Of a stretch of DNA of 64,000 nt, positions 6,615 to 63,705 are shown piece after piece. The notes beneath the pieces are model-generated. The model made no database searches. It had not been told where the DNA came from and saw only the letters and a list, made by a program, of their open reading frames with translations. The DNA comes from Escherichia coli (GTDB lineage: Bacteria; Pseudomonadota; Gammaproteobacteria; Enterobacterales; Enterobacteriaceae): the NCBI RefSeq assembly GCF_017348835.2, contig NZ_CP071375.1; one strand, given 5' to 3'. The translations under genes and the position numbers were made by a program. How positions within the stretch are numbered: the first letter of the stretch is position 1; every line of letters begins with the position of its first letter.

Positions 6615-6720
6615 TGGTGATCGCCGGACGCTGATCGCCGGATGCTGATTGCCGGATGCGACGCTGACGCGTCTTATCCGGCCTACAGCGTCTTATCCGG
6701 TCTACATGTCCCCGCTATTT
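6615..6720. repeat. Cluster of REP (repetitive extragenic palindromic) units
   Basis: Reiterated gccggatgcgacgc / cgtcttatccggcctaca motifs typical of E. coli REP/BIME elements, in the tktB-ypfG spacer. Confidence 0.8.
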
Positions 6721-6723
6721 TGT

Positions 6724-7767: not shown

Positions 7768-7892
7768 GGACGGTACGACCCCAGAAGTTCAAACAAACAG
7801 CACAAGTCGTATCTTCGTTGCGCAGGTAGCGCGGCTCAATCGGATTTGTCGGATTGAGCCAACAATAAACAACGAAATATTATTGTTATTTT

Positions 7893-8468: not shown

Positions 8469-8535
8469 ACCGACTCCACAGCGCGAAATGAACAATTATC
8501 TTACGCTGTGAAGTCGGGTTTGTCTGCGCAGGCTA

Positions 8536-10515
8536 TCAGTGAGATTTGACTGATTTTACCCCCAGCCAGTCAATAATCCCCTGTGCCGCATGACGTCCTT
8601 CTGCCATTGCGGTAACCACCAGATCCGCACCACGCACGGCGTCACCACCAGCGAAGATTTTCGGATTGGTGGTCTGGTAACGGTACTGGCTTTCCACATC
8701 CGCGATGATGCGGCCCCATTTGTCTACCGTTACACCGTGCGACTCCAGCCACGGCATCCCATGCGGATTGAAGCCAAACGCCATAATCACCGCGTCGGCT
8801 GGCATGACAAATTCACTGCCTTCCACCGGTACTGGACGCCGACGCCCCTGGGCATCCGGCTCGCCAAGACGCGTGCGCAGGAAACGAATCCCGCAGACGT
8901 GACCTTGTTCATTCAGCTCAAGCGCCACCGGCTGGACGTTAAATTCGAAGTTGGCCCCCTCTTCGCGGGCGTTCTTCACCTCTTTCTTCGAGCCTGGCAT
9001 GTTAGCTTCATCACGACGATAAGCGCAGGTGACGTTACTCGCGCCGTGGCGCAGCGCAGTACGCACACAGTCCATCGCGGTGTCGCCGCCGCCCAGTACC
9101 ACGACGTTGAGTCCGGCGGTATTGATAAACGGCTCTTCCGGTAGCTCTTCGAGCCCCATCACCTGTTTAGTGTTGGCGATGAGGAACGGCAGCGCGTCAT
9201 AAACGCCCGGCGCATCTTCATTGGGTAAACCCGCTTTCATGGAACGGTAAGTGCCTACGCCAACGAAGACCGCGTCGTATTGTTCCAAAAGCGAATCCAA
9301 AGAGACATCTTTACCCACTTCACAATTGAGTTCGAAGTGAATCCCCATCGCGCTGAAGATTTCCCGACGACGTGCCAGCAGGGATTTATCCAGTTTGAAA
9401 GAAGGAATGCCGAAAGTGAGCAAGCCACCGATTTCTGGATGGCGATCGTACACCGTCACCGCCACGCCATTGCGGGTCAGAACATCCGCACAGGCCAGCC
9501 CTGCCGGACCTGCACCGATAATCGCCACCCGCTTGTCCACTTTGGTGACATGGCTTAAGTCAGGACGCCAACCTTTCGCCAACGCCTGATCTGAAATGTA
9601 GCGTTCAATGTTGCCGATAGTTACCGCACCGTGCTCATCGCGAATAGTACAGGCACCTTCACACAAACGGTCTTGCGGACAAACGCGTCCGGTAATTTCC
9701 GGCAGGGTGTTGGTCAGGTGAGAAAGCTCGACGGCGGCGTCGATGTTTCCGGCTTTCACCAGTTCAATCCACTGCGGTATATGGTTATGCAGCGGGCAGG
9801 TCCATTCACAAACGCTGTGCTCGCCGCATTTAAGGCAGCGCGAGGCTTCCCGTTGTGCCTGATCGGCACGGAATGGCAGATAAATTTCATCAAAACCGGT
9901 TTTGCGCGCTTCAATCGCCAGTTTATCCGGCTCGCCACGCGCGGGCGTTGCCTGCATTTGCTCGACTTTACTCATTACCGGCATTTCTTGCGCCGCGGTA
10001 CTGGCATGCCACGGTTGATGTTCCTGACGTGCGGTACGCAAGCGACGGGATTTCGCCATGCCTGAGAGTGCGGCGTCAGTGACCAGCTGCAGCGCGTCCG
10101 CCGGGCAATTCTCGACACAGGCAGGACCGTTTTCGCGCCCTGCACAAAGGTCGCATTTATGCGCCGTGGCTTTAACTTTGCCCGCTGCGACGGGTGTCAG
10201 GACGATTTGCATCGTACCAAACGGACAGGCCACCACGCAGGATTTACAGCCAATACACTTTTGCTGATTGACCTGAATGCTGTCATCAACGTGGCTGATT
10301 GCGCCATTAGGGCAGCTACGGGCGCAGGGCGCATCTTCACAATGGTGACAGGTCACTGCACTACGTTGCTGCTGATGTTTGATAACCGTAATTCGGGGAT
10401 GAAAATGATGTTGGCTCAGGACATGTTGCTCATCATTGTGAGCCATGACACAAGCGATTTCACAAGCATGACAACCCAGACATTGCTGACTGTTGGCCAT
10501 AATAAAACGATTCAT
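8536..10515 (-). CDS. aegA: Putative Fe-S/FAD oxidoreductase, glutamate synthase small-subunit-like, AegA
   Basis: 659-aa ORF with several CxxCxxCxxxCP ferredoxin motifs at the N-terminus and a GltD-like FAD/NAD(P)-binding C-terminal part. Confidence 0.9.
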   Translation of the reverse strand: MNRFIMANSQQCLGCHACEIACVMAHNDEQHVLSQHHFHPRITVIKHQQQRSAVTCHHCEDAPCARSCPNGAISHVDDSIQVNQQKCIGCKSCVVACPFGTMQIVLTPVAAGKVKATAHKCDLCAGRENGPACVENCPADALQLVTDAALSGMAKSRRLRTARQEHQPWHASTAAQEMPVMSKVEQMQATPARGEPDKLAIEARKTGFDEIYLPFRADQAQREASRCLKCGEHSVCEWTCPLHNHIPQWIELVKAGNIDAAVELSHLTNTLPEITGRVCPQDRLCEGACTIRDEHGAVTIGNIERYISDQALAKGWRPDLSHVTKVDKRVAIIGAGPAGLACADVLTRNGVAVTVYDRHPEIGGLLTFGIPSFKLDKSLLARRREIFSAMGIHFELNCEVGKDVSLDSLLEQYDAVFVGVGTYRSMKAGLPNEDAPGVYDALPFLIANTKQVMGLEELPEEPFINTAGLNVVVLGGGDTAMDCVRTALRHGASNVTCAYRRDEANMPGSKKEVKNAREEGANFEFNVQPVALELNEQGHVCGIRFLRTRLGEPDAQGRRRPVPVEGSEFVMPADAVIMAFGFNPHGMPWLESHGVTVDKWGRIIADVESQYRYQTTNPKIFAGGDAVRGADLVVTAMAEGRHAAQGIIDWLGVKSVKSH

Positions 10516-10720
10516 AACGACCTTCTTTTTTGGTTGTAAAAACCTTATTCTTTATATGAGTGTTGTTATTACCCGACTTACAGGGGAATCGGCAATGTTC
10601 ATGTGCCCAGAATAAGTAACTATTTCGCTATAAACTGTGGCAGATCAAATAATCCCATCACTGACTAAATTGCGTTTCAGCGAACTGGAACATTAATGAT
10701 TTTTTGTGGAGAAGACGCGT

Positions 10721-12421
10721 GTGATTGTTAAACGACCCGTCTCGGCCAGTCTGGCCCGGGCCTTTTTTTACATTGTGCTGCTGTCGATTCTTTCCACGGG
10801 TATCGCTCTGCTAACTCTGGCGAGCAGTTTGCGCGACGCTGAGGCTATCAATATTGCCGGATCGCTGCGTATGCAGAGTTACCGCCTGGGCTACGACTTG
10901 CAAAGTGGCAGTCCACAACTCAATGCACATCGCCAGTTATTTCAGCAGGCACTGCATTCACCGGTATTAACCAACCTCAACGTCTGGTATGTGCCAGAAG
11001 CAGTAAAAACTCGCTATGCGCATCTGAATGCAAACTGGCTGGAGATGAATAATCGGCTCAGCAAGGGCGATTTGCCGTGGTATCAGGCCAATATTAATAA
11101 TTATGTTAATCAGATAGACCTGTTCGTGCTGGCTTTACAGCACTACGCTGAACGCAAAATGCTGCTGGTGGTGGCGATTTCCCTGGCTGGCGGTATCGGT
11201 ATTTTCACGCTGGTCTTTTTTACTTTGCGCCGCATACGCCATCAGGTGGTTGCCCCGCTGAATCAGCTGGTTACCGCCAGTCAGCGTATTGAACACGGAC
11301 AGTTCGACTCGCCGCCGCTGGATACCAGTCTGCCGAATGAGCTTGGTCTGCTTGCAAAAACCTTTAACCAGATGTCGAGCGAGCTGCATAAATTGTACCT
11401 TTCGCTGGAGGCGTCAGTAGAAGAAAAGACCCGCGATCTCCACGAGGCCAAGCGTCGTCTGGAGGTGTTGTATCAGTGTTCGCAGGCGCTGAACACCAGC
11501 CAGATTGATGTGCATTGTTTCCGCCATATTTTGCAGATTGTTCGCGACAATGAAGCGGCTGAATATCTGGAGCTGAACGTTGGGGATAACTGGCGGATTA
11601 GCGAAGGGCAACCAAACCCGGAATTGCCGATGCAGATTTTACCGGTGACAATGCAAGAGACGGTTTACGGCGAACTGCACTGGCAAAATAGTCACGTTTC
11701 ATCATCAGAACCGCTGCTTAACAGCGTTTCGTCGATGCTGGGACGCGGTTTGTACTTTAATCAGGCGCAGAAGCATTTTCAGCAGTTATTGTTGATGGAA
11801 GAACGTGCGACCATCGCCCGCGAATTGCACGACTCGCTGGCTCAGGTGCTTTCTTACTTACGTATCCAGTTGACGTTACTTAAGCGTTCGATACCGGAAG
11901 ATAACGCCACCGCACAAAGTATCATGGCCGATTTTTCCCAGGCGTTGAATGATGCTTATCGGCAGTTACGCGAGCTGTTGACTACTTTCCGCCTGACGCT
12001 GCAGCAGGCGGATCTCCCCTCCGCGTTGAGGGAAATGCTGGATACGTTACAAAATCAAACCAGCGCCAAACTGACCCTCGACTGCCGTCTGCCAACCCTG
12101 GCACTGGATGCGCAAATGCAGGTGCATTTGTTGCAAATTATTCGCGAAGCGGTGCTGAATGCGATGAAGCACGCCAACGCCAGCGAAATCGCCGTCAGTT
12201 GCGTCACCGCGCCGGACGGCAATCACACGGTTTATATCCGTGATAACGGGATTGGTATCGGTGAACCGAAAGAGCCCGAAGGTCATTATGGACTGAATAT
12301 CATGCGCGAACGCGCGGAACGGCTGGGCGGGACGCTGACTTTTTCACAACCTTCCGGCGGCGGCACGTTAGTGAGTATTAGCTTTCGCTCCGCGGAGGGT
12401 GAGGAAAGTCAGCTGATGTAA
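10721..12421 (+). CDS. narQ: Nitrate/nitrite sensor histidine kinase NarQ
   Basis: Two transmembrane segments, HAMP, H-box (ELHDSLAQ) and ATPase domain; GTG start at 10721 chosen to give the 566-aa K-12 product (the ORF track starts at 10706). Confidence 0.9.
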   Translation: MIVKRPVSASLARAFFYIVLLSILSTGIALLTLASSLRDAEAINIAGSLRMQSYRLGYDLQSGSPQLNAHRQLFQQALHSPVLTNLNVWYVPEAVKTRYAHLNANWLEMNNRLSKGDLPWYQANINNYVNQIDLFVLALQHYAERKMLLVVAISLAGGIGIFTLVFFTLRRIRHQVVAPLNQLVTASQRIEHGQFDSPPLDTSLPNELGLLAKTFNQMSSELHKLYLSLEASVEEKTRDLHEAKRRLEVLYQCSQALNTSQIDVHCFRHILQIVRDNEAAEYLELNVGDNWRISEGQPNPELPMQILPVTMQETVYGELHWQNSHVSSSEPLLNSVSSMLGRGLYFNQAQKHFQQLLLMEERATIARELHDSLAQVLSYLRIQLTLLKRSIPEDNATAQSIMADFSQALNDAYRQLRELLTTFRLTLQQADLPSALREMLDTLQNQTSAKLTLDCRLPTLALDAQMQVHLLQIIREAVLNAMKHANASEIAVSCVTAPDGNHTVYIRDNGIGIGEPKEPEGHYGLNIMRERAERLGGTLTFSQPSGGGTLVSISFRSAEGEESQLM

Positions 12422-12584
12422 TGCCTCCTACTGACCAAAGAATACTTGCACTTAAGGTTCAGTATAAAAGGGCATGATAATTTACATTAACTCCTTTTTT
12501 TCTCCACGATTGGCTCGTACCTTGCCGCTACAGTGAAGCAAGTCAAGCCTACAACGATACGCAGAAACACGAGGTCCTCTTTTA

Positions 12585-15500
12585 ATGGCGAATTTCTTTA
12601 TTGATCGCCCCATTTTTGCCTGGGTGCTGGCAATCCTGTTGTGTCTGACAGGTACCCTGGCGATTTTTTCATTGCCCGTTGAACAATACCCCGATCTCGC
12701 GCCACCGAATGTGCGAGTGACCGCTAACTATCCCGGCGCATCGGCCCAGACGCTGGAAAACACCGTGACCCAGGTTATCGAGCAAAATATGACCGGCCTC
12801 GATAATCTCATGTATATGTCATCTCAGAGCAGTGGCACCGGTCAGGCATCTGTCACTTTAAGTTTTAAAGCAGGCACCGATCCGGACGAAGCCGTGCAGC
12901 AAGTACAAAACCAGCTGCAATCAGCCATGCGAAAGTTACCGCAGGCGGTGCAAAATCAGGGCGTGACGGTGCGTAAAACCGGCGATACCAATATTCTGAC
13001 CATTGCTTTCGTCTCTACCGATGGTTCGATGGATAAACAGGATATTGCTGATTATGTTGCCAGTAATATTCAGGATCCGTTAAGCCGCGTGAATGGCGTC
13101 GGGGATATCGATGCCTATGGTTCGCAATATTCCATGCGTATCTGGCTGGACCCGGCGAAACTCAACAGTTTCCAGATGACAGCTAAAGATGTCACTGATG
13201 CCATTGAGTCACAGAACGCGCAGATTGCGGTTGGGCAACTTGGGGGTACACCTTCCGTCGATAAGCAGGCGCTCAACGCCACCATTAACGCCCAGTCACT
13301 GCTGCAAACACCAGAACAGTTCCGCGATATCACCTTGCGGGTGAATCAGGACGGCTCAGAAGTAAGGCTGGGCGATGTCGCCACCGTCGAAATGGGGGCG
13401 GAGAAATACGATTATCTTAGCCGCTTCAATGGTAAGCCAGCCTCCGGGTTGGGGGTAAAACTGGCCTCCGGCGCAAACGAAATGGCGACAGCGGAGCTGG
13501 TGCTCAATCGTCTCAACGAGCTGGCGCAGTATTTCCCGCATGGACTGGAATACAAGGTGGCGTATGAAACCACCTCGTTTGTTAAAGCCTCCATTGAAGA
13601 CGTGGTGAAAACGCTGCTGGAAGCTATCGCTCTGGTTTTCCTCGTTATGTATCTGTTCCTGCAAAACTTCCGCGCCACGCTGATACCCACTATCGCCGTG
13701 CCGGTGGTGTTGATGGGAACCTTCTCCGTACTTTACGCCTTCGGTTACAGCGTCAACACCTTAACCATGTTCGCGATGGTGCTGGCGATCGGTCTGCTGG
13801 TGGATGACGCCATCGTGGTGGTGGAAAACGTCGAACGTATTATGAGTGAGGAAGGACTCACTCCTCGCGAAGCCACACGTAAATCGATGGGGCAGATCCA
13901 GGGGGCACTGGTCGGGATTGCGATGGTGCTTTCGGCGGTATTTGTACCAATGGCCTTCTTCGGCGGCACCACCGGTGCCATCTATCGCCAGTTCTCTATT
14001 ACCATTGTTGCGGCGATGGTGCTGTCAGTACTGGTAGCGATGATCCTCACTCCGGCTCTGTGTGCCACGCTACTTAAGCCACTGAAAAAAGGTGAGCATC
14101 ACGGGCAAAAAGGCTTTTTTGCCTGGTTTAACCAGATGTTTAACCGCAACGCCGAACGCTACGAAAAAGGGGTGGCGAAAATTCTCCACCGTAGCCTGCG
14201 CTGGATTGTGATTTATGTCCTGCTGCTTGGCGGCATGGTGTTCCTGTTCCTGCGTTTGCCGACGTCGTTCTTACCGCTGGAAGACCGGGGCATGTTTACT
14301 ACCTCGGTACAATTGCCCAGCGGTTCAACCCAACAACAGACCCTGAAAGTCGTTGAGCAAATCGAGAAATATTACTTCACCCATGAAAAAGACAACATCA
14401 TGTCGGTGTTTGCCACCGTTGGCTCTGGCCCTGGGGGCAACGGGCAAAACGTGGCGCGAATGTTTATCCGCCTGAAAGACTGGAGCGAACGCGACAGTAA
14501 GACCGGCACCTCATTTGCCATTATCGAGCGTGCAACGAAGGCGTTTAACAAGATTAAAGAAGCTCGCGTTATCGCCAGCAGCCCGCCAGCAATTAGCGGT
14601 CTTGGTAGTTCTGCGGGTTTTGATATGGAGTTGCAGGACCACGCTGGAGCAGGTCACGATGCGCTGATGGCAGCACGTAACCAGTTGCTGGCGCTGGCGG
14701 CGGAAAACCCGGAGCTAACCCGTGTGCGCCATAACGGCCTCGATGACAGTCCGCAGTTGCAGATTGATATCGACCAGCGTAAAGCTCAGGCGCTGGGCGT
14801 TGCTATCGACGATATTAACGACACACTGCAAACCGCCTGGGGTTCGAGCTATGTGAATGACTTTATGGATCGCGGTCGCGTGAAGAAAGTCTATGTGCAG
14901 GCAGCTGCGCCGTATCGCATGCTGCCAGATGACATCAATCTCTGGTATGTCCGAAATAAAGATGGCGGCATGGTGCCCTTCTCTGCTTTCGCGACCTCAC
15001 GCTGGGAGACAGGCTCGCCGCGTCTGGAACGCTATAACGGTTATTCTGCGGTTGAGATTGTTGGGGAAGCCGCACCGGGGGTCAGTACCGGTACGGCGAT
15101 GGATATTATGGAATCGTTAGTGAAGCAGTTGCCAAACGGCTTTGGTCTGGAGTGGACGGCGATGTCGTATCAGGAGCGGCTTTCCGGCGCGCAGGCTCCG
15201 GCGCTGTACGCTATTTCCTTGCTGGTGGTATTCCTGTGTCTGGCTGCATTGTATGAAAGCTGGTCGGTACCGTTCTCGGTAATGCTGGTCGTGCCGCTGG
15301 GGGTTATCGGCGCGCTGCTGGCAACCTGGATGCGGGGGCTGGAAAACGACGTTTACTTCCAGGTGGGCCTGTTAACGGTCATTGGTTTATCGGCGAAAAA
15401 CGCCATCCTGATCGTCGAGTTTGCTAACGAGATGAACCAAAAAGGCCACGACCTGTTTGAAGCGACGCTCCACGCCTGCCGTCAGCGTTTACGCCCGATT

Positions 15501-15698
15501 CTGATGACCTCGCTGGCATTTATCTTCGGCGTATTGCCAATGGCAACCAGCACGGGTGCCGGTTCCGGTGGTCAGCATGCGGTGGGTACTGGCGTAATGG
15601 GCGGGATGATTTCAGCTACTATTCTGGCTATTTACTTCGTGCCGCTGTTCTTTGTGCTGGTGCGCCGCCGCTTCCCGCTGAAGCCGCGCCCGGAATAA
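12585..15698 (+). CDS. acrD: RND-family aminoglycoside efflux pump AcrD
   Basis: 1037-aa ORF with 12-TM RND transporter architecture ([15 protein letters not shown]-terminus). Confidence 0.95.
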
Positions 15699-15703
15699 GC
15701 AAT

Positions 15704-15737
15704 AAAAAAGGCGACATGCCAATGTGTCGCCTTTTTC
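15704..15737. terminator. Rho-independent terminator, probably bidirectional (acrD and ypfM)
   Basis: A-run, stem ggcgaca (15710-16) / tgtcgcc (15725-31), then T-run 15732-36. Confidence 0.7.
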
Positions 15738-15786
15738 AACTTTCCGATTAAGAACTTGCTCAGCAGGTTCTTGCTGTTTGTACTTT

Positions 15787-15846
15787 GTCTCAGGAATTAC
15801 TTACGAAGCATAACTTCAATAAAGTCTTTCCAGTTCCCCAGTTCAC
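15787..15846 (-). CDS. ypfM: Very small protein YpfM (19 aa)
   Basis: Reverse translation gives MIERELGNWKDFIEVMLRK*, matching my recollection of K-12 YpfM; too short for the ORF track. Confidence 0.6.
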
Positions 15847-16218
15847 GTTCAATCATAACAACCTCTCTTATAATTATGGGTATTCTACGGAAACAATATA
15901 CCGTGGTGAAGCTAATTTACTCGATTGCTGCGATGACTACCTCCGGGGGACAAACCTTATGTAAATACTATGGTCCTGCGGTGATGATTTGTATGTGATA
16001 CACAGCAACATTTCGAGATATTCATACGGCATCTAATACTGATTTAATTCTGGTTAAAATACAGACAGATAACAAGATGAATATTCTTAATGTTTACGTT
16101 AAAAATGTTTAATATTATTTAATAGTTGTTAATTTGAATACTTCGATAATGTTATATTTCCTGATAATCATTTGCAGGCAAAATGTTTTCACCCTTAAAT
16201 GAGTATTTATTCTCATAA

Positions 16219-16593
<375 letters not shown>

Positions 16594-16596
16594 TCT

Positions 16597-17724
16597 ATGT
16601 CGTGCCCGGTTATTGAGCTGACACAACAGCTTATTCGCCGCCCTTCCCTGAGTCCTGATGACGCAGGATGCCAGGCTTTGTTGATTGAACGTTTGCAGGC
16701 GATCGGTTTTACCGTTGAACGCATGGACTTTGCCGATACGCAGAATTTTTGGGCATGGCGTGGGCAAGGTGAAACATTGGCCTTTGCCGGGCATACCGAC
16801 GTGGTGCCGCCTGGCGACGCCGATCGTTGGATCAATCCGCCGTTTGAACCAACCATTCGTGACGGCATGTTATTCGGGCGCGGTGCGGCAGATATGAAAG
16901 GCTCGCTGGCGGCGATGGTGGTAGCTGCAGAACGTTTTGTCGCACAACATCCCAACCATACGGGGCGACTGGCATTTCTGATCACCTCTGATGAAGAAGC
17001 CAGTGCACACAATGGTACGGTAAAAGTCGTCGAAGCGTTAATGGCACGTAATGAGCGTCTCGATTACTGCCTGGTCGGCGAACCGTCGAGTATCGAAGTG
17101 GTAGGTGATGTAGTGAAAAATGGTCGTCGCGGATCGTTAACCTGCAACCTAACCATTCATGGCGTTCAGGGGCATGTTGCCTACCCACATCTGGCTGACA
17201 ATCCGGTACATCGCGCAGCACCTTTCCTTAATGAATTAGTGGCTATTGAGTGGGATCAGGGCAATGAATTCTTCCCGGCGACCAGTATGCAGATTGCCAA
17301 TATTCAGGCGGGAACAGGCAGTAACAACGTTATTCCGGGTGAACTGTTTGTGCAGTTTAACTTCCGCTTCAGCACCGAACTGACTGATGAGATGATCAAA
17401 GCGCAGGTGCTTGCCCTGCTTGAAAAACATCAACTGCGCTATACGGTGGATTGGTGGCTTTCCGGGCAGCCATTTTTGACCGCGCGCGGTAAACTGGTGG
17501 ATGCGGTCGTTAACGCGGTTGAGCACTATAATGAAATTAAACCGCAGCTACTGACCACAGGCGGAACGTCCGACGGGCGCTTTATTGCCCGCATGGGGGC
17601 GCAGGTGGTGGAACTCGGGCCGGTCAATGCCACTATTCATAAAATTAATGAATGTGTGAACGCTGCCGACCTGCAGCTACTTGCCCGTATGTATCAACGT
17701 ATCATGGAACAGCTCGTCGCGTGA
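16597..17724 (+). CDS. dapE: Succinyl-diaminopimelate desuccinylase
   Basis: 375-aa M20 peptidase-family ORF ([15 protein letters not shown] motifs). Confidence 0.95.
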
Positions 17725-54508: not shown

Positions 54509-54601
54509 CGGTTACCTTCTCCACTTTCACAGAACATAACGGCACTTTGAACCGCCCCGGAAATCCTGGAGACTAAACTCCCTGAGAAAGAGGTAAACAG
54601 G

Positions 54602-54928
54602 ATGACTAAAAATACTCGTTTTTCCCCCGAAGTCCGTCAGCGGGCGATTCGTATGGTTCTGGAAAGTCAGGATGAATATGACTCACAGTGGGCGGCAATT
54701 TGTTCCATTGCCCCAAAGATTGGCTGTACGCCGGAGACTCTGCGTGTCTGGGTTCGCCAGCATGAGCGGGATACCGGGAGTGGTGATGGTGGACTCACCA
54801 CCGCTGAACGTCAGCGTCTGAAAGAGCTGGAACGTGAAAATCGTGAACTGCGCCGCAGTAACGATATCCTTCGCCAGGCTTCCGCTTATTTTGCGAAGGC
54901 GGAGTTCGACCGCCTCTGGAAAAAATAA
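54602..54928 (+). CDS. IS3-family transposase OrfA (HTH DNA-binding part)
   Basis: 108-aa [33 protein letters not shown]... with a leucine-zipper-like C-terminus; A-rich slippery run (ggaaaaaataatg) at its 3' end. Confidence 0.85.
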
Positions 54929-55815
54929 TGCCACTGCTGGATAAGCTGCGTGAGCAGTACGGGGTCGGACCGGTATGCAGCGAACTGCATATTGCCCCGT
55001 CAACGTATTACCATTGTCAGCAACAGCGACATCATCCGGATAAACGCAGTGCCCGTGCGCAGCACGATGACTGGCTGAAGAAAGAGATACAGCGCGTATA
55101 CGATGAAAATCACCAGGTATACGGTGTGCGTAAAGTCTGGCGTCAGTTGTTACGGGAAGGTATCAGAGTGGCCAGATGCACTGTGGCACGTCTCATGGCA
55201 GTTATGGGACTTGCCGGTGTTCTCCGGGGTAAAAAGGTCCGCACTACCGTCAGCCGGAAAGCCGTTGCCGCATGCGACCGCGTAAACCGTCAGTTCGTGG
55301 CAGAACGTCCAGACCAGTTGTGGGTGGCTGATTTTACCTGGGTAAGCACATGGCAGGGCTTCGTTTATGTGGCGTTCATCATTGATGTGTTCGCCGGATA
55401 CATCGTGGGATGGCAGGTCTCATCATCCATGGAAACAACATTCGTGCTGGATGCACTGGAGCAGGCGTTGTGGGCCCGTCGGCCGTCCGGCACAATCCAT
55501 CACAGTGATAAAGGTTCTCAGTATGTATCGCTGGCCTACACGCAGCGGCTTAAGGAAGCCGGATTACTGGCATCAACAGGGAGTACTGGCGACTCGTATG
55601 ACAACGCGATGGCTGAGAGCATCAATGGTCTTTACAAAGCGGAGGTAATACACCGTAAGAGCTGGAAAAACCGGACAGAAGTGGAACTGGCCACACTAAC
55701 GTGGGTGGACTGGTATAACAATCGACGATTGCTGGAAAGGCTGGGCCATATTCCTCCGGCAGAAGCAGAAAAAGCTTATTATGCTTCCATCGGAAATAAT
55801 GATCTGGCAGCCTGA
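54928..55815 (+). CDS. IS3-family transposase OrfB (DDE integrase catalytic domain)
   Basis: 295-aa ORF in the -1 frame relative to OrfA; rve/DDE core recognisable (WVADFTWVST ... DKGSQYVS ... DNAMAES). Confidence 0.85.
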   Translation: MPLLDKLREQYGVGPVCSELHIAPSTYYHCQQQRHHPDKRSARAQHDDWLKKEIQRVYDENHQVYGVRKVWRQLLREGIRVARCTVARLMAVMGLAGVLRGKKVRTTVSRKAVAACDRVNRQFVAERPDQLWVADFTWVSTWQGFVYVAFIIDVFAGYIVGWQVSSSMETTFVLDALEQALWARRPSGTIHHSDKGSQYVSLAYTQRLKEAGLLASTGSTGDSYDNAMAESINGLYKAEVIHRKSWKNRTEVELATLTWVDWYNNRRLLERLGHIPPAEAEKAYYASIGNNDLAA

Positions 55816-56045
55816 GTTCACAGATAAAACACTCTCCAGGAAACCCGGGGCGGTTCAAACTCGTACAGTGGCGTACCACTGGGGTCCATTCCTTCAAGTC
55901 TCAGGGAAGCCTCTGCTTTGCGGAAGCCCTCAATGCGTAACCGTGTATAGGGAGTCCTAGACATGTTTTTCCTTTGAGTTGCAGGAGTGAGGTTCGCTCA
56001 GTGAAAGCGTCAGCTCACGCAACCTCGTTAACTGACGCGCGTGAT

Positions 56046-57446: not shown

Positions 57447-57631
57447 TCTCGTTTAGGGCTTGGTTTATTATTACTCCGTAGAGCACATTTATCGTATTTA
57501 TGTTCATCAAATTTATTATCTGGCATCGATAAACAATCTTTATCATTTTTATCGCAAGAACATATGGCCAATAAACTGATCAGAATAAATACAATCAAAA
57601 AATTATCTTTCATTCTGCGTTTCCTCACCAA
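57440..57631 (-). CDS. Small lipoprotein in the TrbK (IncP entry-exclusion) position
   Basis: 63-aa ORF with a hydrophobic leader and Cys-containing lipobox-like motif (LLAICSCDK); overlaps the trbJ stop and trbL start, as trbJ-trbK-trbL does in IncP plasmids. Confidence 0.45.
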   Translation of the reverse strand: MVRKRRMKDNFLIVFILISLLAICSCDKNDKDCLSMPDNKFDEHKYDKCALRSNNKPSPKREW

Positions 57632-58419
57632 ATTCGCTTCGGGCTTGGTGTATTCTCTCCAGCTAACGCTTTTTCATCAGCGGCTATCTGTTGTGATTCT
57701 TTATCTGCCTGAGCCTGTGCCAGTGTTGCTGCAGCGTTTTGTTGGGCTACCAGAAGTGAGCGGATTTGCAGTAACTGATTTGTCTGTGCACTGGCAAGCT
57801 GGTTTGCCGCCTGAATAGCTTCCATTTGCCCTTGTGCGCCGCTTGCCTGAGTTTGTAATTCGGCAAGATTATCAGCATCGCTCTGCAGGGTGTTCTGCTG
57901 CTCGTCAATTACCTTAAATACTGCGTCATTGGCCTTTTTACGCGCCCCTGAGCTATTCTGTTCAGCTTCACGCAGTGCACTAATTTCAGACGCGGTACAT
58001 TCAACATTGCTGTTAAAGCAAGACGATGTCCTGTAGTAGTTAACATCCTGATAGCGTTTCAGGTACGCATCGAGACTCCCGGCCTGATTCTTGTAGTAAT
58101 TAAGGGTATCCTGCACCTGCAACAATTTATTAATTGTTGAATTTGCCTGGTCCCAGATATAGGCCGCAGGAGCTACGGTGTTCTGCAGCATGTTTTCATA
58201 CTGCTGCAGCTGCGTCTGGTACTGCTGGATTTGTTTAGTCACAGCCTGAACGTTGTTAACTGCGCTGATTGTGGTCTGAACCACATTAGTGCCATCAATA
58301 ACGGGAATTCCGGCCTTCACCGGTAATGCCATGACGGACGCCACGAAAGGAACTATTAAAGCTTTTTTAGCGGCTAAAATCCCTCTTTGTGATGAAACCA
58401 CTCGGAACTTTAAATTCAT
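57625..58419 (-). CDS. trbJ: TrbJ/VirB5-family conjugative transfer protein
   Basis: 264-aa ORF with signal peptide and Gln/Ala-rich coiled-coil stretches typical of TrbJ/VirB5 minor pilus/adhesin proteins. Confidence 0.6.
   Translation of the reverse strand: MNLKFRVVSSQRGILAAKKALIVPFVASVMALPVKAGIPVIDGTNVVQTTISAVNNVQAVTKQIQQYQTQLQQYENMLQNTVAPAAYIWDQANSTINKLLQVQDTLNYYKNQAGSLDAYLKRYQDVNYYRTSSCFNSNVECTASEISALREAEQNSSGARKKANDAVFKVIDEQQNTLQSDADNLAELQTQASGAQGQMEAIQAANQLASAQTNQLLQIRSLLVAQQNAAATLAQAQADKESQQIAADEKALAGENTPSPKRIW
58365..58379. promoter_or_regulatory. KorB-operator-like palindrome TTTTAGCGGCTAAAA (copy 1, inside the 5' end of trbJ)
   Basis: Perfect inverted repeat containing TTTAGCGGCTAAA, identical to the IncP-1 KorB operator consensus TTTAGC(G/C)GCTAAA. 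Confidence 0.6.
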
Positions 58420-58499: not shown

Positions 58500-58865
58500 T
58501 TATTTATCCAAGATTTTATCCATAATGTTCCTTAGTTCTTGCCGAGTTGATTCTATTTTCGCAAGCAAGGTTCTTATCAGTGTGGGTGAAAAATCAACTG
58601 TTCGAGGATCATTTGCGAGCCATAATTTAAGTAATCCGCCAAGTCTTCCAAGATCAGCATTTACTCGGCTAAGTTCATTAACCTGTTTTATATCTACGAT
58701 AGAATCAACCTGATAACCCATTGCAACTCTACGAACAAAACAGGCAACACTTAATCCAGATGCTTCTGCATTTTCTTGGATGAGAATTTTTTCTTCGGGT
58801 AAACAATAAACTTTTATTGGCGTACTATTTTTTCTAGTCTGAGTAACTTTCATATAGCTCTCCAT
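58500..58865 (-). CDS. MobC-family relaxosome accessory protein (ribbon-helix-helix)
   Basis: 121-aa ORF; VYCLPEEKILIQENAEASGLSVACFVRRVAMG ... LSRVNADLGRLGGLLKLW fits the MobC-family pattern; lies directly beside a candidate oriT region. Confidence 0.55.
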   Translation of the reverse strand: MESYMKVTQTRKNSTPIKVYCLPEEKILIQENAEASGLSVACFVRRVAMGYQVDSIVDIKQVNELSRVNADLGRLGGLLKLWLANDPRTVDFSPTLIRTLLAKIESTRQELRNIMDKILDK

Positions 58866-58939
58866 ACAGGCGGTAGCCTGGCAGCCTCGCAGAGCAGGAC
58901 GCCCTTGAGCCGCGATGCGGCGAATAGGGAGTGGTAAAG

Positions 58940-58995
58940 TTGGAACACCGTAGCGGTGGGCCCACTTTACATGTCCTGCCCTGCAGTTGCCGTTG
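58940..58995. promoter_or_regulatory. Candidate origin of transfer (oriT-like region)
   Basis: 10-bp perfect palindrome GTGGGCCCAC (58956-58965) immediately followed by CTTTACATGTCCTGCCCTGCAG, which resembles my recollection of the IncP nic region (core TCCTGCCC); adjacent to the MobC-like gene. Confidence 0.35.
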
Positions 58996-59252
58996 TATAT
59001 CTGTGCACGACAATGTGTATTTCAGTGTACAGGATGTGTTTTCTTAGCGTATTAATATAGGATTACTGGAGTAAATTTCTGCAGCAAATGTGTTTTTTGC
59101 AAGGAAACTATATTTCTCCCTTTTGAAAATGACCTTTAGTAGTTATAAATGGACGTCCACCAACTGTATTTATGTTTCGATATATTGTAAGAAGTCTTTC
59201 ATTTTCCGATGCACTTTTTTACTTACCTTGTCAGAGCATGTGCATTGCAGAT

Positions 59253-59265
59253 TTTAGCGGCTAAA
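59253..59265. promoter_or_regulatory. KorB-operator-like palindrome (copy 2)
   Basis: aTTTTAGCGGCTAAAATc; exact match to the IncP-1 KorB operator core, in the 675-bp intergenic region. Confidence 0.6.
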
Positions 59266-59501
59266 ATCTGCCTCCCTATGCCTAAAGCTAGGGGCGTACC
59301 TCATATGTCATAAAATCTACCTCAAGTGTCAATATACCAAACGTGTAAGTAATCTCTTCTTCTGGCGTACAACCATCGGTCTTTGGCCGATTCTAGATTT
59401 GAAAGCGCCTGCTCAGGCAGGTGATTTCAAAGCCTGAATATACTGGTTGATCCTGAATAACCTGCAAAGGAGTTAAAAAATCAGGCCTCTGTAGCACACT
59501 G

Positions 59502-59562
59502 GCGGGCCGTTACAGCACATCACCGGGCCGTAACGACACGTTACCGGGCCGTTGTAGCTCGT
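59502..59562. repeat. Three direct iteron-like repeats with 21-bp periodicity
   Basis: CGGGCCGT recurs at 59503, 59524 and 59545 with similar flanks (..TACAGCACAT / ..AACGACACGT / ..TGTAGCTCG); the third overlaps the stop codon of the putative initiator gene. Confidence 0.5.
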
Positions 59563-60314
59563 TTTATCCTAGAATTTTGTATCTCAATGCCAATCGCTAG
59601 AAATTGTTTGCTATCTTCTTTTAATCTCCGCCGATAGTTACGTAATGTCATATTATTGGTACCTTCACCACTGACAGCTAAAATTAATGTATCAATATGC
59701 CAGCCGCCTTTAGGATCGTGCTTATGTGTTAATATATGACGTGCAACTGCTTGGCTAATACCATGCTGGAGACGAGCAATAGGACCTGGATCATGATGAA
59801 AATGCAAATCTCGCTTCAACAACATTACCAATGCAACACCCAAGCGTACTCTCCATAGGTTACGTTCACCACCAGTTAGAGGATTACGCCTAGTCATTGG
59901 TGAGGGTACGACATGGTCAATTAAACCGCCTAGAATGCAATAACCGTTTTTTTCTAAATCTGGCGTTACTATTTCAACAGTTGCCACACGTAGATCAACG
60001 AGTAGTTTTTTAATTCGATCATAACTGTATTGTGCATCGGATAGAGTTCGGCGTACTTTCGCTGGATCTACTAATAACTCGATTCCTCCATCAGAAATTT
60101 CTCGACGTTTCTCGGCCACATAGAGCATTGTTTCCACAATATCCGCATGACGTTGTCCTAGTCTTCCGGTAACTCGACAACGACCAAAACTAGTCTCCAT
60201 CCACTGCCCCTTCAGCGCCAAGGGACGTTGACTTGGTTGGTACAGAATGACTCTAGCCTGCAGAGCTGTGCTAGTAGGTGTAACTTTATTACCAGTTATC
60301 ATTTTCTGCACCAC
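59541..60314 (-). CDS. Hypothetical protein, possible replication initiator (RepC-like by position)
   Basis: 257-aa basic protein directly downstream of the RepA-like helicase gene and ending in the iteron-like repeats; assignment rests on gene order, not on recognised motifs. Confidence 0.35.
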   Translation of the reverse strand: MVQKMITGNKVTPTSTALQARVILYQPSQRPLALKGQWMETSFGRCRVTGRLGQRHADIVETMLYVAEKRREISDGGIELLVDPAKVRRTLSDAQYSYDRIKKLLVDLRVATVEIVTPDLEKNGYCILGGLIDHVVPSPMTRRNPLTGGERNLWRVRLGVALVMLLKRDLHFHHDPGPIARLQHGISQAVARHILTHKHDPKGGWHIDTLILAVSGEGTNNMTLRNYRRRLKEDSKQFLAIGIEIQNSRIKRATTAR

Positions 60315-60330
60315 TCAATGAAGACATACA

Positions 60331-61146
60331 TTATTTTGCTATTTGTTTTTTATTCTTCGATTTGAGTTGCGTTATCCTTAATACTCCTCCCTCATGTCTC
60401 TGTAACCAACGTTCTGGCGTACGTTCTCCATAATTTGCTTTATTTATTCCAAATCTAACAAATTGACCTCGAACATCATCAGAAATATCATACGTCTTCG
60501 CTTCTAAGGCGGTCATGCCCGCCAGATAAGATTGCCACCGTATATTATCAACCAGGACGCTACTACCCCTGCTTGCCTGCTGTATATCACCAACTCCCAT
60601 CGTGGCAGAGCCTTTGTTTGAATGGTGTAGAAATATAATCGAACACCCTGTATCAGCAGCAATACCTTCTAGCTTTCCAATGACTTTGGACATTGCTCCG
60701 CTATTATTTTCATCTTCCTGGTGGAAACGGCGAAGAGTATCCAAAATTATTAACCGTCTACTTTTTGAAATCTCATTAATCAAGTTGCTCCAACCTGGCG
60801 AGAAAATATTTGGACACTTCCCTACCAAAGGTTCGACAAGTAGCTTATCAGCAACAATCTGCTGCTGACGTGCTGTTAGATATTTTCCCAAAGCATATAG
60901 ACGATGGTGAATGATGGTTGCAGAGTCCTCCACAGGTAAATATGCCACTAACCCCGTTGGATATTCACCAAAGTTTAAAAGATCTACACCACAAGTAATC
61001 TGCACAGCCAGTTGCAATGCCAGCATTGACTTTCCAACGCCTCCCGGAGAAACAATCGCTCCGATAGTACCAATAGCCAAATTAGGCAAGACGTAATCAA
61101 TTGGTTGCGGCTTAGCTTCAAATGCTTCCATTATGTTCAATGACAT
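60331..61146 (-). CDS. RecA-fold AAA_25 ATPase, RSF1010 RepA-like replicative helicase
   Basis: 271-aa ORF with Walker A (SPGGVGKSMLALQLA) and Walker B-like (RLIILDTL) motifs; size and motif layout as in IncQ RepA. Confidence 0.6.
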   Translation of the reverse strand: MSLNIMEAFEAKPQPIDYVLPNLAIGTIGAIVSPGGVGKSMLALQLAVQITCGVDLLNFGEYPTGLVAYLPVEDSATIIHHRLYALGKYLTARQQQIVADKLLVEPLVGKCPNIFSPGWSNLINEISKSRRLIILDTLRRFHQEDENNSGAMSKVIGKLEGIAADTGCSIIFLHHSNKGSATMGVGDIQQASRGSSVLVDNIRWQSYLAGMTALEAKTYDISDDVRGQFVRFGINKANYGERTPERWLQRHEGGVLRITQLKSKNKKQIAK

Positions 61147-61151
61147 TGCTG

Positions 61152-61403
61152 TTACCTACCTAAAACAATACCGGGTCTGGCTGCTTTAAACATTGCTGAT
61201 TTACGATCCGCAATCCACTGTTCCACTTCGGATAACTGCCATGCAACATTTCGGCTCGTAAGTGCTATACGGCGAGGAAACTCGCCTCGCTGTTCAAGGT
61301 TATAAATAGTGCGGGCTGACAATGGGATCATTTCCAGAAGTGTTTTTCTGTTAATGAGCGTGCTATGTGCCTTTGTTTGCATCTGCCTTCCTCCTGTTTC
61401 CAA
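61152..61403 (-). CDS. alpA: AlpA-family prophage/island transcriptional regulator (excisionase-like)
   Basis: 83-aa ORF with the AlpA HTH signature (LSARTIYNLEQRGEFPRRIALTSRNVAWQLSEVEQWI). Confidence 0.7.
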   Translation of the reverse strand: METGGRQMQTKAHSTLINRKTLLEMIPLSARTIYNLEQRGEFPRRIALTSRNVAWQLSEVEQWIADRKSAMFKAARPGIVLGR

Positions 61404-61459
61404 TCAGGCCTATACAATGCCAAGCATTACCACTTGCTAAAACCTATTCATTGGCTAAA

Positions 61460-62431
61460 ATGGTTGACATGAAAATTACTATCTGGGAAGGCTGTGACCT
61501 CACAGTTGCAGCTGCAATTAAATTATTTGTAGAGCGTAGTTCTCCGTACTCCATATTTTCACGGAGGTATCCAATACTGCGTCTCATACAGGAAGTTATT
61601 GATCCAGCAGTAGCTGATTATGTAAATTCCCTGCCACCAAGTCATAAAGACTACATTTCTGGAGTAAATCTAGGATTTAGTGAAGTACTTAAAAAATTGG
61701 GTTTAAACGTCGTAGTACAGGCACAAAGACTTCTTTTGCGTAATTTCGTTCTGACTTTAGATCAACAAACTTCTCTTGATAAATGCTTTACCGCTACGAT
61801 TGAGTCTCTTATTGAATTAGTCAGTGAATGCGCATCCAAGCGGCCGAAGAAATCCTCTCCTGCAAAAGGAGTAACTATAAATTCACAGCGTAAGCTCGGT
61901 TATTGCGAGTTCTGCGGTAATCTAACCGAATTTTCCAAGTTGATCAGTGAGATATCAGAATTTGTTGCTAACGATAATGAGTTCCCCGTTCATGAAAAAC
62001 AGGTCCTTAGTCATCGATATTGTTCTGACCATAGGCCCAAACTCACCAATGGTCTATGGAATCCCAAATACAGACAAGGAAAGCGGTCTCTCGAACAGTT
62101 CAATAAAGAATTAATAAGGCTTAGACGGCAATGCGCTAAACCTCATAAAGCTAACGCAAACACAGGGGATATATTGATTGATACATATTTTCATGAGTGG
62201 ATGCAGGGTCAAACTTTAACCCCAGCAGATCTAGATAAACTTAGGAATATCGCCAGACGAATGGTTGACTCCAAATTCACTGATACTAAGAAAAAAATAA
62301 TCATATTAAAACACCAAGGTTTTAACCAGTTTGAAACCGCACAGGTTTTAGAAAAAAATCACTACACAACTATGACAAAGCAGGCTGTGTCCAAGGCCTT
62401 AGCGTCTGTGAGGAAAGAATTTTATATTTAA
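61460..62431 (+). CDS. Hypothetical protein with Cys/His cluster and C-terminal helix-turn-helix
   Basis: ORF track starts at 61367, overlapping alpA; a more plausible start is the ATG at 61460 (MVDMKITIW). Contains CEFCGN ... HRYCSDH and a C-terminal HTH-like segment; no family recognised. Confidence 0.45.
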   Translation: MVDMKITIWEGCDLTVAAAIKLFVERSSPYSIFSRRYPILRLIQEVIDPAVADYVNSLPPSHKDYISGVNLGFSEVLKKLGLNVVVQAQRLLLRNFVLTLDQQTSLDKCFTATIESLIELVSECASKRPKKSSPAKGVTINSQRKLGYCEFCGNLTEFSKLISEISEFVANDNEFPVHEKQVLSHRYCSDHRPKLTNGLWNPKYRQGKRSLEQFNKELIRLRRQCAKPHKANANTGDILIDTYFHEWMQGQTLTPADLDKLRNIARRMVDSKFTDTKKKIIILKHQGFNQFETAQVLEKNHYTTMTKQAVSKALASVRKEFYI

Positions 62432-62856: not shown

Positions 62857-62869
62857 TTTAGCAGCTAAA
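62857..62869. promoter_or_regulatory. KorB-operator-like palindrome (copy 3, central A variant)
   Basis: aTTTTAGCAGCTAAAATt; same arms with a central A instead of G/C. Confidence 0.5.
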
Positions 62870-63692: not shown

Positions 63693-63705
63693 TTTAGCGG
63701 CTAAA
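63693..63705. promoter_or_regulatory. KorB-operator-like palindrome (copy 4)
   Basis: aTTTTAGCGGCTAAAATt, between the 209-aa membrane protein gene and the integrase gene. Confidence 0.6.

Follow-up and report, generated by a model that had tools for sequence, protein, structure and literature searches.

Integrative mobilizable elements of the PIME1 type were described in a January 2026 preprint by Perta et al. (bioRxiv 10.64898/2026.01.12.698999), which presents PIME1EcRHB23-C07 and PIME1MmNCTC12028. IncP helper plasmids are reported there to induce the excision of both. With pB10 as the helper, PIME1Mm is amplified eight-fold, and this amplification is lost in a repA deletion. According to the same preprint, a repA-oriV clone of PIME1MmNCTC12028 is both sufficient and required for replication: a ts vector replicates only if its repA-oriV is intact. 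Four iterons downstream of the rep genes are also described for PIME1, as is a reduced amplification of the helper. The main text of the preprint credits 'repA' as the replicase, and contains no discussion of the 257-aa protein, the missing primase or the KorB operators that are the subject of much of what follows.

Other elements that target guaA, namely GIsul2 and the IncP islands, share with the present locus a tyrosine integrase that is positioned at the 3' end of guaA. Their maintenance genes are listed as including RepA, alone or accompanied by RepC, and they carry TrbJ, TrbK and TrbL from IncP plasmids but no full T4SS (PMC5704250).

SGI1, an IncA/C-dependent integrative mobilizable element, follows the same course of helper-induced excision and then transient replication. 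[quoted passage not shown] The proteins are unrelated however. The SGI1 replication protein is placed in the Rep_3 initiator superfamily (IME review, PMC5704250), and the helper group is IncC for SGI1 and IncP here. SGI1 also reduces cotransfer with its helper, which by the preprint's account PIME1Mm does not (bioRxiv 10.64898/2026.01.12.698999).

A third group of relatives is formed by the IncQ plasmids, which replicate autonomously. Those used for comparison were pP35D, as the representative of IncQ1, and pRAS3.3; a plasmid of the IncP-1-like type, pJJ1886_4, was used as well. Within IncQ-3, the cluster III plasmids pUL3AT and pJF-707 have been reported to be without repC (PMC7557826).

The window, meaning the whole stretch of 64,000 nucleotides of Escherichia coli DNA that was analysed, ends inside an int gene. 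In the identical genome PE164 this gene adjoins guaA. The island inserted there carries int, a luxR-like gene, alpA, repA, a putative initiator gene, oriV, an IncP-type oriT, traJ, trbJ and trbL, the last two as annotated by PGAP. The preprint describes PIME1 with the same insertion site and with int, luxR-like, alpA, repA, traJ, trbJ and trbL genes, an IncP-type oriT with a 17-bp inverted repeat, and an iteron-bearing oriV downstream of the rep genes. By insertion site and gene set, the element fits the PIME1 family. Strain RHB23-C07 itself is not among the best 60 E. coli matches listed. It is very probable that the region studied serves a PIME1-type element at the guaA 3' end as its vegetative replication module, and that it works by the mechanism proposed further on.

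Three genes of the module lie head to tail on the minus strand. The string is headed by a gene for an AlpA-like regulator or excisionase (61152..61403), which PGAP annotates as a helix-turn-helix regulator. It is followed by repA (60331..61146) and by the gene for a 257-aa protein (59541..60314). From this order, the three may well be co-transcribed as an operon. Divergent from alpA, on the plus strand, a 354-aa ORF (61367-62431) is a LuxR family regulator according to PGAP; its product has no significant Pfam match and no hidden primase domain. Both alpA and the LuxR-like gene are conserved in related loci. alpA stands upstream of repA in 38 of them, and its homologue in the Morganella locus matches Pfam Phage_AlpA.

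An earlier description, made from the sequence alone, had likened the 271-aa Walker-A ATPase to the RepA helicase of RSF1010. This likeness is confirmed. The protein matches Pfam AAA_25 (1.2e-28) and has the Walker A motif GGVGKS. BLASTP aligns it along its full length (266 aa) with RepA of the IncQ1 plasmid pP35D, at 61% identity (E 1e-129). In nearly all related loci, repA is found directly upstream of the initiator gene, and in IncQ-1 plasmids too the initiator gene comes directly after repA.

The 257-aa protein is counted from a GTG start, while PGAP starts the ORF at an ATG at 60302, which gives 253 aa. Members of this family are currently auto-named 'ABC transporter ATPase'. The protein had been described as basic and of unknown family, and both parts hold: the pI is 10.3, and it matches no Pfam or NCBIfam model. 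The RepC model PF06504 was matched by none of the 46 members of the family, and on the full-length protein the RepC HMM fails just as Pfam and NCBIfam do. Rep3_N gave a weak match in a single one of the 46 (E 0.09), and the family was not recognised as Pfam Rep_3 (PF01051).

There may nevertheless be a remote relation to RepC. BLASTP against IncQ1 RepC aligns just 39 aa (E 0.003). Comparing the family to RepC with hhalign yields a collinear match with a probability of 63% and an E of 6.8e-5, confined to the last 56 or so columns at the C-terminus (about 50 residues). HMM cross-searches between the two families also return collinear matches, of 1e-6 to 1e-3.

The structure model of the 257-aa protein is confident, and has the two-winged-helix (WH1-WH2) fold of iteron-binding initiators such as Pi and RctB. 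These two are also the top PDB neighbours that it has in common with the model of IncQ RepC, for which the pLDDT is only 72.5. The tandem winged-helix fold may be a further likeness to IncQ-1. Outside its own family, Foldseek against AFDB50 finds Rep_3 WH1 initiators and TrfA. The protein is the positional equivalent of IncQ RepC, and probably a very distant evolutionary one as well. Since it has no sequence-family assignment, it is the fold and the position of the protein that point to iteron binding.

The repeats that such a protein would bind are at the 3' end of its own gene. Three of them had been noted before, at 59503, 59524 and 59545. The positions and the spacing were right: CGGGCCGT cores occupy 59503-59510, 59524-59531 and 59545-59552 on the plus strand, exactly 21 bp apart. 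The number was not, since a degenerate fourth repeat unit starts at 59482. Phased on the family consensus GTGGCACAGCCGCCCGATAGC, the array consists of four 21-bp units on the minus strand, running from 59560 down to 59477. Read on the coding strand these are GAGCTACAACGGCCCGGTAAC, GTGTCGTTACGGCCCGGTGAT, GTGCTGTAACGGCCCGCCAGT and GTGCTACAGAGGCCTGATTTT, where the last has the degenerate core AGGCCTG. The 257-aa ORF ends within the array, which covers its stop codon and the codons just before it.

The CGGGCCGT 8-mer occurs only five times in the 64-kb window, three of these in the array. With Tandem Repeats Finder, 59503-59553 comes out as an array of period 21, one of only three window-wide that score at least 50.

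A search for related loci, seeded with 16 closer homologue sequences, bears out the reading of these repeats as iterons. Of 73 related loci, 66 have a 21-bp array of about four copies that starts no more than about 60 bp from the stop codon of the initiator gene. Elsewhere in the same 73 loci, the background for such arrays is 0.0046 per 300 bp. The GCCCG core of the consensus is kept at 90% or more. The Morganella homologue locus has the same gene order and the same four 21-bp units as found here.

IncQ-1 plasmids likewise have a short array beside the initiator gene, of 3.5 to 4 direct repeats of roughly 21-22 bp. The period is 22 bp there however, with 3.5 copies in IncQ1 and 4 in pRAS3, and the iteron sequence is unrelated. 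In pUL3AT, pJF-707 and the related pSMBC31-5K, the gene for a homologue of the 257-aa protein (62-65% identical) directly follows repA, and comes with homologous 21-bp iterons, AGCGTGGCACAsCsGCCCGAT, and then CAGGATATT repeats. In pUL3AT, pSMBC31-5K and a 5.2-kb Citrobacter plasmid, homologues of 62-65% and 40% identity sit between repA and a 21-bp array of 3.4-3.9 copies. Classical IncQ-3 iterons are absent from pUL3AT. The presence of the family in pUL3AT-type plasmids would resolve why some IncQ-3 plasmids seemed to be without repC. The 257-aa gene represents a distinct, unannotated family of putative initiators with its own 21-bp iterons, which can be swapped into IncQ backbones.

The overlap of the repeats with the 3' end of the gene would also suit a transcriptional regulator. 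The repeats would then be an operator, for autoregulation or for traJ, and not an origin, and replication would proceed through RepA and some other site. Autoregulation is also common among iteron-binding initiators, for example pPS10 RepA and RepE. Several observations go against a regulator. Full-length matches over both domains are obtained only with the initiators Pi and RctB (190-194 residues aligned), while regulators match over a single domain at much lower Z. Plasmids of 5-9 kb have no candidate for an initiator other than this protein, and no iteron-like array other than its repeats. In the preprint, moreover, replication was lost when the oriV locus, which lies downstream of the rep genes, was mutated (bioRxiv 10.64898/2026.01.12.698999). 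A regulator with its operator is extremely unlikely, and the protein is treated below as an initiator.

Directly after the iterons, on the minus strand, follow a T-run and two to three CAGGATATT-like repeats of about 10 bp (59432..59476), a candidate opening region. This block is kept across gamma- and betaproteobacterial relatives in an alignment of their origins (A4). It also stands after the iterons of pSMBC31-5K and pUL3AT.

Beyond it are two hairpins. Hairpin A (59398..59431; inverted repeat I1) has a 15-bp stem and a 4-nt loop, and is conserved. Hairpin B, ATCGGCC-NNN-GGCCGAT followed by GGTTGWACGCCAG (59359..59392, minus strand), may be a site of priming or of single-strand initiation. 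Across 9 relatives, compensatory changes are seen in 6 of the 15 pairs of hairpin A, and in one pair of hairpin B. The covariation score observed for the two hairpins together was reached by none of 500 shuffles, and 91% of cells are paired, against 32-44% in slid controls. The hairpin B block is the most conserved one outside of the iterons, and is near-invariant in alignment A4. In 15 loci its exact motif is found some 170-190 bp beyond the stop codon of the initiator gene; the RepB-bearing plasmids compared do not have it.

Further on, two copies of TGACAyxTGAGGTA are found 21 bp apart (59297..59331; direct repeat D2), as a candidate promoter or regulator site. On the other strand this motif reads TTGACAyTTGAGG, which resembles a -35 element, and it recurs in relatives, sometimes three to four times (alignment A4). 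A scan for sigma-70 promoters and terminators showed no enrichment over shuffles. With up to one mismatch allowed, 58866-59600 contains no DnaA box, and this is the one hint in the sequence on independence from host DnaA, DnaB, DnaC and DnaG.

With these parts, the locus might be taken for a complete classical IncQ strand-displacement replicon, in which RepC binds the iterons, RepA does the unwinding, and RepB' primes at ssiA and ssiB, all independent of host initiation proteins. The 61% identical RepA is of the RSF1010 type. The order of repA, initiator and iterons is that of IncQ1 and IncQ2 plasmids with their 22-bp arrays of 3.5 to 4 copies, and in pP35D the array comes directly after repC. 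There are also two hairpins near the iterons.

What is missing is the primase. The window has no tblastn match (E >0.7) to any of three types: IncQ1 RepB, the RepB-like protein of pUL3AT, and a Citrobacter toprim relaxase-primase. Nor does any one of the 38 AlpA-positive loci have a primase within 6 kb. pUL3AT, pJF-707 and pSMBC31-5K do keep a RepB-like protein, along with GC-rich ssi-type palindromes; here these palindromes are replaced by the different, conserved and covarying hairpin block some 50-200 bp from the iterons. The failure of the initiator to match PF06504 also goes against a classical replicon, which is highly improbable.

Because the window and the AlpA-positive loci contain no primase, the IncQ mechanism cannot be transferred unchanged to a PIME1-type module, and because the element has no RepB-type primase, priming must be provided by the host or in some other way. 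The element further differs from IncQ-1 in having no MobA/B/C, and in being integrated and helper-induced where IncQ-1 is autonomous. pUL3AT, pJF-707 and pSMBC31-5K replicate autonomously too, and have MOBP-type mobilization genes instead of int, alpA and trb.

On its far side, the origin borders on the transfer region. The preliminary description had an AT-rich stretch beside the repeats. The stretch (59040..59240) is real, with 32% GC against 51% window-wide, and less than 1% of 201-bp windows are as low. It is about 240 bp away from the repeats however, between the oriV core and oriT, and it adjoins the latter. The conserved hairpins and a palindrome with a KorB operator lie in between. In alignment A4 its sequence is unconserved among relatives, yet an AT-rich segment is present in the same place.

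This palindrome is a perfect one of 12+12 (59247..59271). At 59253-59265 it contains the exact core of the IncP KorB operator O_B, TTTAGCGGCTAAA, as given in PMC11790492. Dickeya, Phytobacter, Lonsdalea and Falsochrobactrum loci also have an O_B site in this position, about 275 bp beyond the end of the initiator gene. In the window, KorB sites are placed at 58366, 59253 and 63693. Across guaA islands, exact IncP KorB operators stand at stereotyped positions, of which one is between oriV and oriT. The KorA operator O_A was looked for as well, and is absent.

The IncP-type oriT (58934..58981, plus strand) is made up of a 17-bp inverted repeat, I2 (58934-58950 and 58954-58970), and a nic-like GTCCTG|CCC at 58973-58981. 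The pattern occurs once in the window. Its nic block, GGGCAGGAT...GTGAAGT, is conserved in alignment A4, and PIME1Ec too has an inverted repeat of 17 bp according to the preprint (bioRxiv 10.64898/2026.01.12.698999). An ATCCTG at around 59450, beside I1, was considered as an IncP nic site and rejected in favour of this block; it is part of the oriV CAGGATATT repeats, and these are also present in IncQ-family plasmids. Next to oriT is traJ (58500..58865, minus strand), for an oriT-binding relaxosome accessory protein of 121 aa. It matches NCBIfam PRK13877 TraJ at 2.6e-47, above the curated cutoff.

Taken as a whole, the proposal that helicase, initiator, iterons and AT-rich DNA amount to an oriV is supported by the IncQ1-like RepA, the family-wide 21-bp array, and the functional repA-oriV of a relative. 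In intact relatives, the module would fire only after an IncP helper triggers the Int-, AlpA- and LuxR-dependent excision. The initiator would then bind the four iterons, and this binding would open the adjacent T-rich segment with its CAGGATATT repeats. RepA, as a hexameric helicase, would be loaded at the opened segment, and the two hairpins are candidates for the sites where DNA synthesis starts. Firing would raise the copy number before transfer from the neighbouring oriT.

The preliminary description also expected the excised island to replicate with a helper, as SGI1 does. For the relative PIME1MmNCTC12028 this has been shown, but the copy studied here is truncated. An intact relative has a 15-bp att core, AAATCATTCCCACTC, that overlaps with the stop codon of guaA. 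This core is not found in the window, even with two mismatches allowed. In a related locus (L089), positions 4945-17459 hold attR, the cargo region and the flanking genes yfgH and yfgI; here an IS3-family element stands in place of that stretch. Through the insertion of this element and a deletion, both the cargo region and the distal att site have been lost. With attR lost, an excised island probably cannot form from this copy. The module, though seemingly intact, is probably left stranded in the chromosome.

One could suppose that it is active all the same, firing in place on entry of an IncP helper and over-replicating the surrounding chromosome. Neither ORF is shortened and both closely resemble those of intact relatives, other E. 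coli copies match the rep-oriV DNA at 97.8-99.9% identity, and three of the four iterons retain a perfect core. The preprint however found no amplification in excision-defective deletion mutants of int, luxR and alpA (bioRxiv 10.64898/2026.01.12.698999), and the fourth iteron is degenerate in the present lineage when set against an 88.7% E. coli variant. Firing in place is most improbable.

A wider picture can be sketched only tentatively. PIME replicons may derive from IncQ replicons and lack their primase, with an unrecognised tandem winged-helix family in the place of RepC, this family also being the missing initiator of the IncQ-3 plasmids reported to be without repC, and the O_B sites may couple the island to the KorB of the helper. 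The hijacking of IncC parS sites by SGI1 is a precedent for such a coupling. It could run through gene regulation, through hitch-hiking on IncC-KorB partition, or through titration of KorB. Titration, if true, would explain the reduced helper amplification in the preprint.

Replication after excision is already published for close relatives, and to that the present locus adds one truncated copy. The distinct family of putative initiators, the lack of a primase and the helper's KorB operators on islands did not appear in the literature searched. The module explains how the widespread guaA islands, whose cargo is often anti-phage defence, are amplified after IncP-triggered excision. As island replicons without a RepB-type primase, they cannot work exactly as IncQ plasmids do. 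And islands that carry the consensus KorB operators of their helper offer a testable handle on how island and helper sense or interfere with one another.

The DNA is chromosomal E. coli sequence, with 100% identity to strain PE164 along the stretch tested. Between guaA and yfgG it carries a genomic island, with the genes in the order int, a 209-aa open reading frame, a LuxR-family regulator, alpA, a 'helicase RepA family protein', a hypothetical protein, traJ, trbJ and trbL; an IS3-family element comes next. On the minus strand, alpA is at 61152-61403, the 271-aa helicase frame at 60331-61146 and the 257-aa frame at 59541-60314. After a 675-bp intergenic region comes traJ (58500-58865), and trbJ lies at 57625-58419. 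The chromosomal portion of the window also has two short tandem arrays at 6609-6706 (14-bp x 3.6 and 19-bp x 2), which may be REP-type intergenic repeats. The PE164 annotation of that part (L001 1-540 and 13323-15566) has hyfR frameshifted and pdeF with an internal stop codon.

Islands of this kind are not new. For GIsul2 and IncP islands at guaA, RepA, accompanied or not by RepC, and TrbJ/K/L had been recorded earlier (PMC5704250). A preprint of January 2026 (Perta et al., bioRxiv 10.64898/2026.01.12.698999) defines PIMEs, among them the PIME1 family at guaA. There, PIME1EcRHB23-C07 (PIME1Ec) measures 22.2 kb, sits at guaA and carries int, alpA, luxR, repA, traJ, trbJ and trbL. Excision is induced by the IncP helpers pB10 and pKJK5. 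PIME1MmNCTC12028 (PIME1Mm) is amplified up to eight-fold, and this is strongly reduced by deletion of repA. An oriV with four iterons lies downstream of repA, a ts vector replicates only with an intact repA-oriV, and RSF1010 homologues of repA are noted. Replication competence has been demonstrated by others, for relatives. The Morganella homologue locus matches in gene order and likewise has four 21-bp units. Given the published PIME1 replication and this likeness, the preliminary description, which read helicase, initiator and iterons as an oriV-like replication module, was correct, and essentially already in print. The system is already known, and the copy in the window is truncated.

An intact relative of ~20 kb is found in strain 2017.20.01CC (locus L089). 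It is bounded at both ends by the 15-bp direct repeat AAATCATTCCCACTC, one copy of which overlaps the guaA stop codon. Its cargo is defence-like, with DUF262 proteins and a UvrD-like helicase with an ATP-dependent endonuclease. The counterpart of L089 4945-17459 (~12.5 kb with yfgH, yfgI, attR and the cargo region) is missing from the window, and the IS3-family element at 54548-55858 stands in its place. The break is inside higA, adjoining trbL. The att core does not occur in the 64-kb window, even with two mismatches permitted. Because the attR and cargo stretch is replaced and the att core is absent, this copy is a truncated remnant, on which excision by site-specific recombination should not work. 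This means that the earlier suggestion of an excised island replicating with a helper holds for the relative PIME1Mm, but is unlikely to hold for the copy in the window.

The likeness of the 271-aa ATPase to the RSF1010 RepA helicase is borne out. The protein is 61% identical to RepA of the IncQ1 plasmid pP35D over 266 residues (E 1e-129), and the family check against Pfam returns AAA_25 at 1.2e-28. With tblastn, the helicase finds 817 plasmid records, mainly IncQ1 replicons or repA-repC fragments thereof.

The next gene had been described as encoding a basic protein of unknown family. The protein is indeed basic (pI 10.3), and it has zero matches in Pfam and NCBIfam searches. Its own family comprises 371 clusters at 50% identity, and none of 46 diverse members of it matches the RepC family PF06504. 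The AlphaFold model is confident (pLDDT 94.9, pTM 0.91) and has a two-winged-helix fold, for which Foldseek against AFDB50 returns the protein's own family first, and then Rep_3 WH1 initiators and TrfA. Relatives (P0008, P0009, P0011 and others) are publicly named 'ABC transporter ATPase' or hypothetical. The former name looks like an annotation error, since Pfam and NCBIfam give no ATPase match and the predicted structure shows two winged helices.

The sequence similarity to RepC is confined to the C-terminus. BLASTP against IncQ1 RepC aligns 39 C-terminal residues and no more (E 0.003). With hhalign, a 46-sequence profile of the family matches an 18-sequence RepC profile over the last 56 columns (probability 63%, E 6.8e-5), and reciprocal HMM searches give collinear C-terminal matches at 1e-6 to 1e-3. 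The protein is probably a very distant relative of RepC. Our conclusion is that it is a tandem winged-helix, iteron-type initiator, in RepC's position yet outside PF06504, with predicted iteron binding.

Small plasmids provide natural experiments here. The 257-aa protein finds eight plasmid records with tblastn, and in the five closest (62-65% identity, plasmids of 5.7-9.0 kb) the homologue directly follows repA. The homologue in pSMBC31-5K (L002 2158-2991) is 65% identical, and that of pUL3AT and the pJF-707-type 8.3-kb plasmids 62%. MOB-suite types the latter as IncQ2, the literature as IncQ-3 cluster III. A 5.2-kb Citrobacter plasmid also has a 40%-identical homologue after repA. Piotrowska et al. 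described pUL3AT, pJF-707 and p435_c4 as having no repC, and raised the idea that this gene may be dispensable (PMC7557826). In pUL3AT (L003 8249-8995 and 1-71), however, the homologue is present and is followed by 21-bp iterons, and a search there for classical IncQ-3 iterons found none. The three plasmids pUL3AT, pSMBC31-5K and the 5.2-kb Citrobacter one share this layout of gene and then 21-bp array; the unit sequences differ. The homologue is the only candidate initiator in these plasmids, and in pUL3AT and pSMBC31-5K the cassette of initiator and iterons has apparently been exchanged.

Three repeats at an exact 21-bp spacing had been described, and the 8-mer CGGGCCGT is found at 59503, 59524 and 59545, out of five occurrences in the whole 64 kb. 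Tandem Repeats Finder reports a period-21 array here, one of three arrays in the window with a score of at least 50. Phased on the family consensus, four units run from 59560 down to 59477, the fourth with the degenerate core AGGCCTG. An E. coli variant of 88.7% identity has all four cores intact in an unchanged register.

Scanning a single genome for each species gave 79 related loci, in which RepA is nearly always directly upstream of the initiator gene; AlpA precedes RepA in 38. Where the 3' end is complete, the array starts -20 to +55 from the stop codon in 66 of 73 loci, mostly with 3.5-4 copies, against a background for comparable arrays elsewhere in these loci of 0.0046 per 300 bp. The consensus is GTGGCACAGCCGCCCGATAGC, with the core GCCCG conserved at 90% or above and variable flanks.

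The remaining origin anatomy was read from an alignment of nine Gamma- and Betaproteobacteria relatives. Downstream of the iterons come a T-run and then CAGGATATT-like repeats, two to three in number, which recur in pUL3AT and pSMBC31. Next is a hairpin with a 15-bp stem and compensatory changes, then a small, almost invariant hairpin, and then GGTTGWACGCCAG. Taken jointly, the two hairpins have both sides changed in 7 of 22 pairs. Their covariation score is reached by none of 500 shuffles, and 91% of cells are paired, versus 32-44% in slid controls. The invariant hairpin block is present in 15 island loci and absent from RepB-bearing plasmids, which retain GC-rich IncQ-type palindromes in its place. 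The origin region contains no DnaA box with one mismatch or fewer. The AT-rich stretch at 59040-59240 is real (32% GC, among the lowest 1% of 201-bp windows), but it sits ~240 bp from the repeats and not next to them.

Most relatives also have a third small hairpin, situated between the two hairpins above (L015, L016, L018, L025, L033, L048; alignment columns ~187-212). Its arms vary by locus yet stay complementary, for example AAGTCC-TGAC-GGACTT. The elements of E. coli, Phytobacter and Morganella lack it.

Proximal to traJ is an IncP-type oriT, with an inverted repeat at 58934-58970 and GTCCTG|CCC at 58973-58981. The repeat is 17 bp, the length given for PIME1Ec in the preprint. Between oriV and oriT, a -35-like TTGACAyTTGAGG occurs in two to four copies, here at 59297-59331 and in several relatives (alignment columns ~270-520); it may be a promoter or regulator binding site. 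In some 80 other complete E. coli genomes the match is restricted to the 213-bp oriT-proximal segment 58866-59078; identity is 94%, and most have the segment at a similar place in the chromosome. Such matches suggest related elements with a common oriT region and a different replication module.

Three tblastn queries (IncQ1 RepB, the RepB-like protein of pUL3AT and a toprim relaxase-primase) have no hit in the window. Nor does a primase gene of these types occur within 6 kb in any of the 38 AlpA-positive loci; plasmid-like contigs alone have one. The island module therefore consists of RepA and initiator only, unlike IncQ. The identity and conservation of these parts are established here; the iteron-binding partner, opening site, priming and replication mode are what we infer. 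The initiator would bind the four iterons, the T-rich repeat segment beside them would open, and RepA would be loaded. The conserved hairpins or their surroundings would be where synthesis begins, primed by the host or by some other route. In intact elements, firing would come only once helper-induced excision has occurred.

The island also carries IncP KorB operators (O_B). Exact cores TTTAGCGGCTAAA, as given in PMC11790492, lie at 58366-58378, 59253-59265 and 63693-63705, with a one-mismatch near-match at 62857-62869. All four matches in the window fall within the island; ~0.1 such matches would be expected by chance. The 38 AlpA-positive loci hold 61 exact sites (~0.01 expected), and the other 43 loci one. 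The positions are stereotyped, at +41 in trbJ and ~40-60 bp beyond the stop codon of luxR. In some loci another falls between oriV and oriT, ~275 bp beyond the stop codon of the initiator gene. Over the 48 kb examined of the IncP-1-like plasmid pJJ1886_4 there are 12 sites, including one at the 5' end of a trbJ (L090 23220-23990) with 86% DNA identity to that of the island. The trbJ site is therefore probably inherited.

The same 86% identity is seen with trbJ of Enterobacterales IncP-1-like plasmids of ~41-94 kb (mostly ~50-60 kb), which carry TrfA, KorB/IncC, KorC and the trb operon. The collection's remaining IncP-type TrbJ proteins are far more distant from that of the island (~55-60% protein identity). 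These IncP-1-like plasmids are candidates for the natural helpers of PIME1Ec, which pB10 and pKJK5 failed to mobilise in the preprint.

KorB is not mentioned in the preprint's main text. The IncC parS mimics used by SGI1 are a precedent for the island sites, which may help in sensing the helper, in hitch-hiking on its partition or in titrating KorB. What is added here to the known system is the initiator family, the absence of a primase and the operators for KorB.
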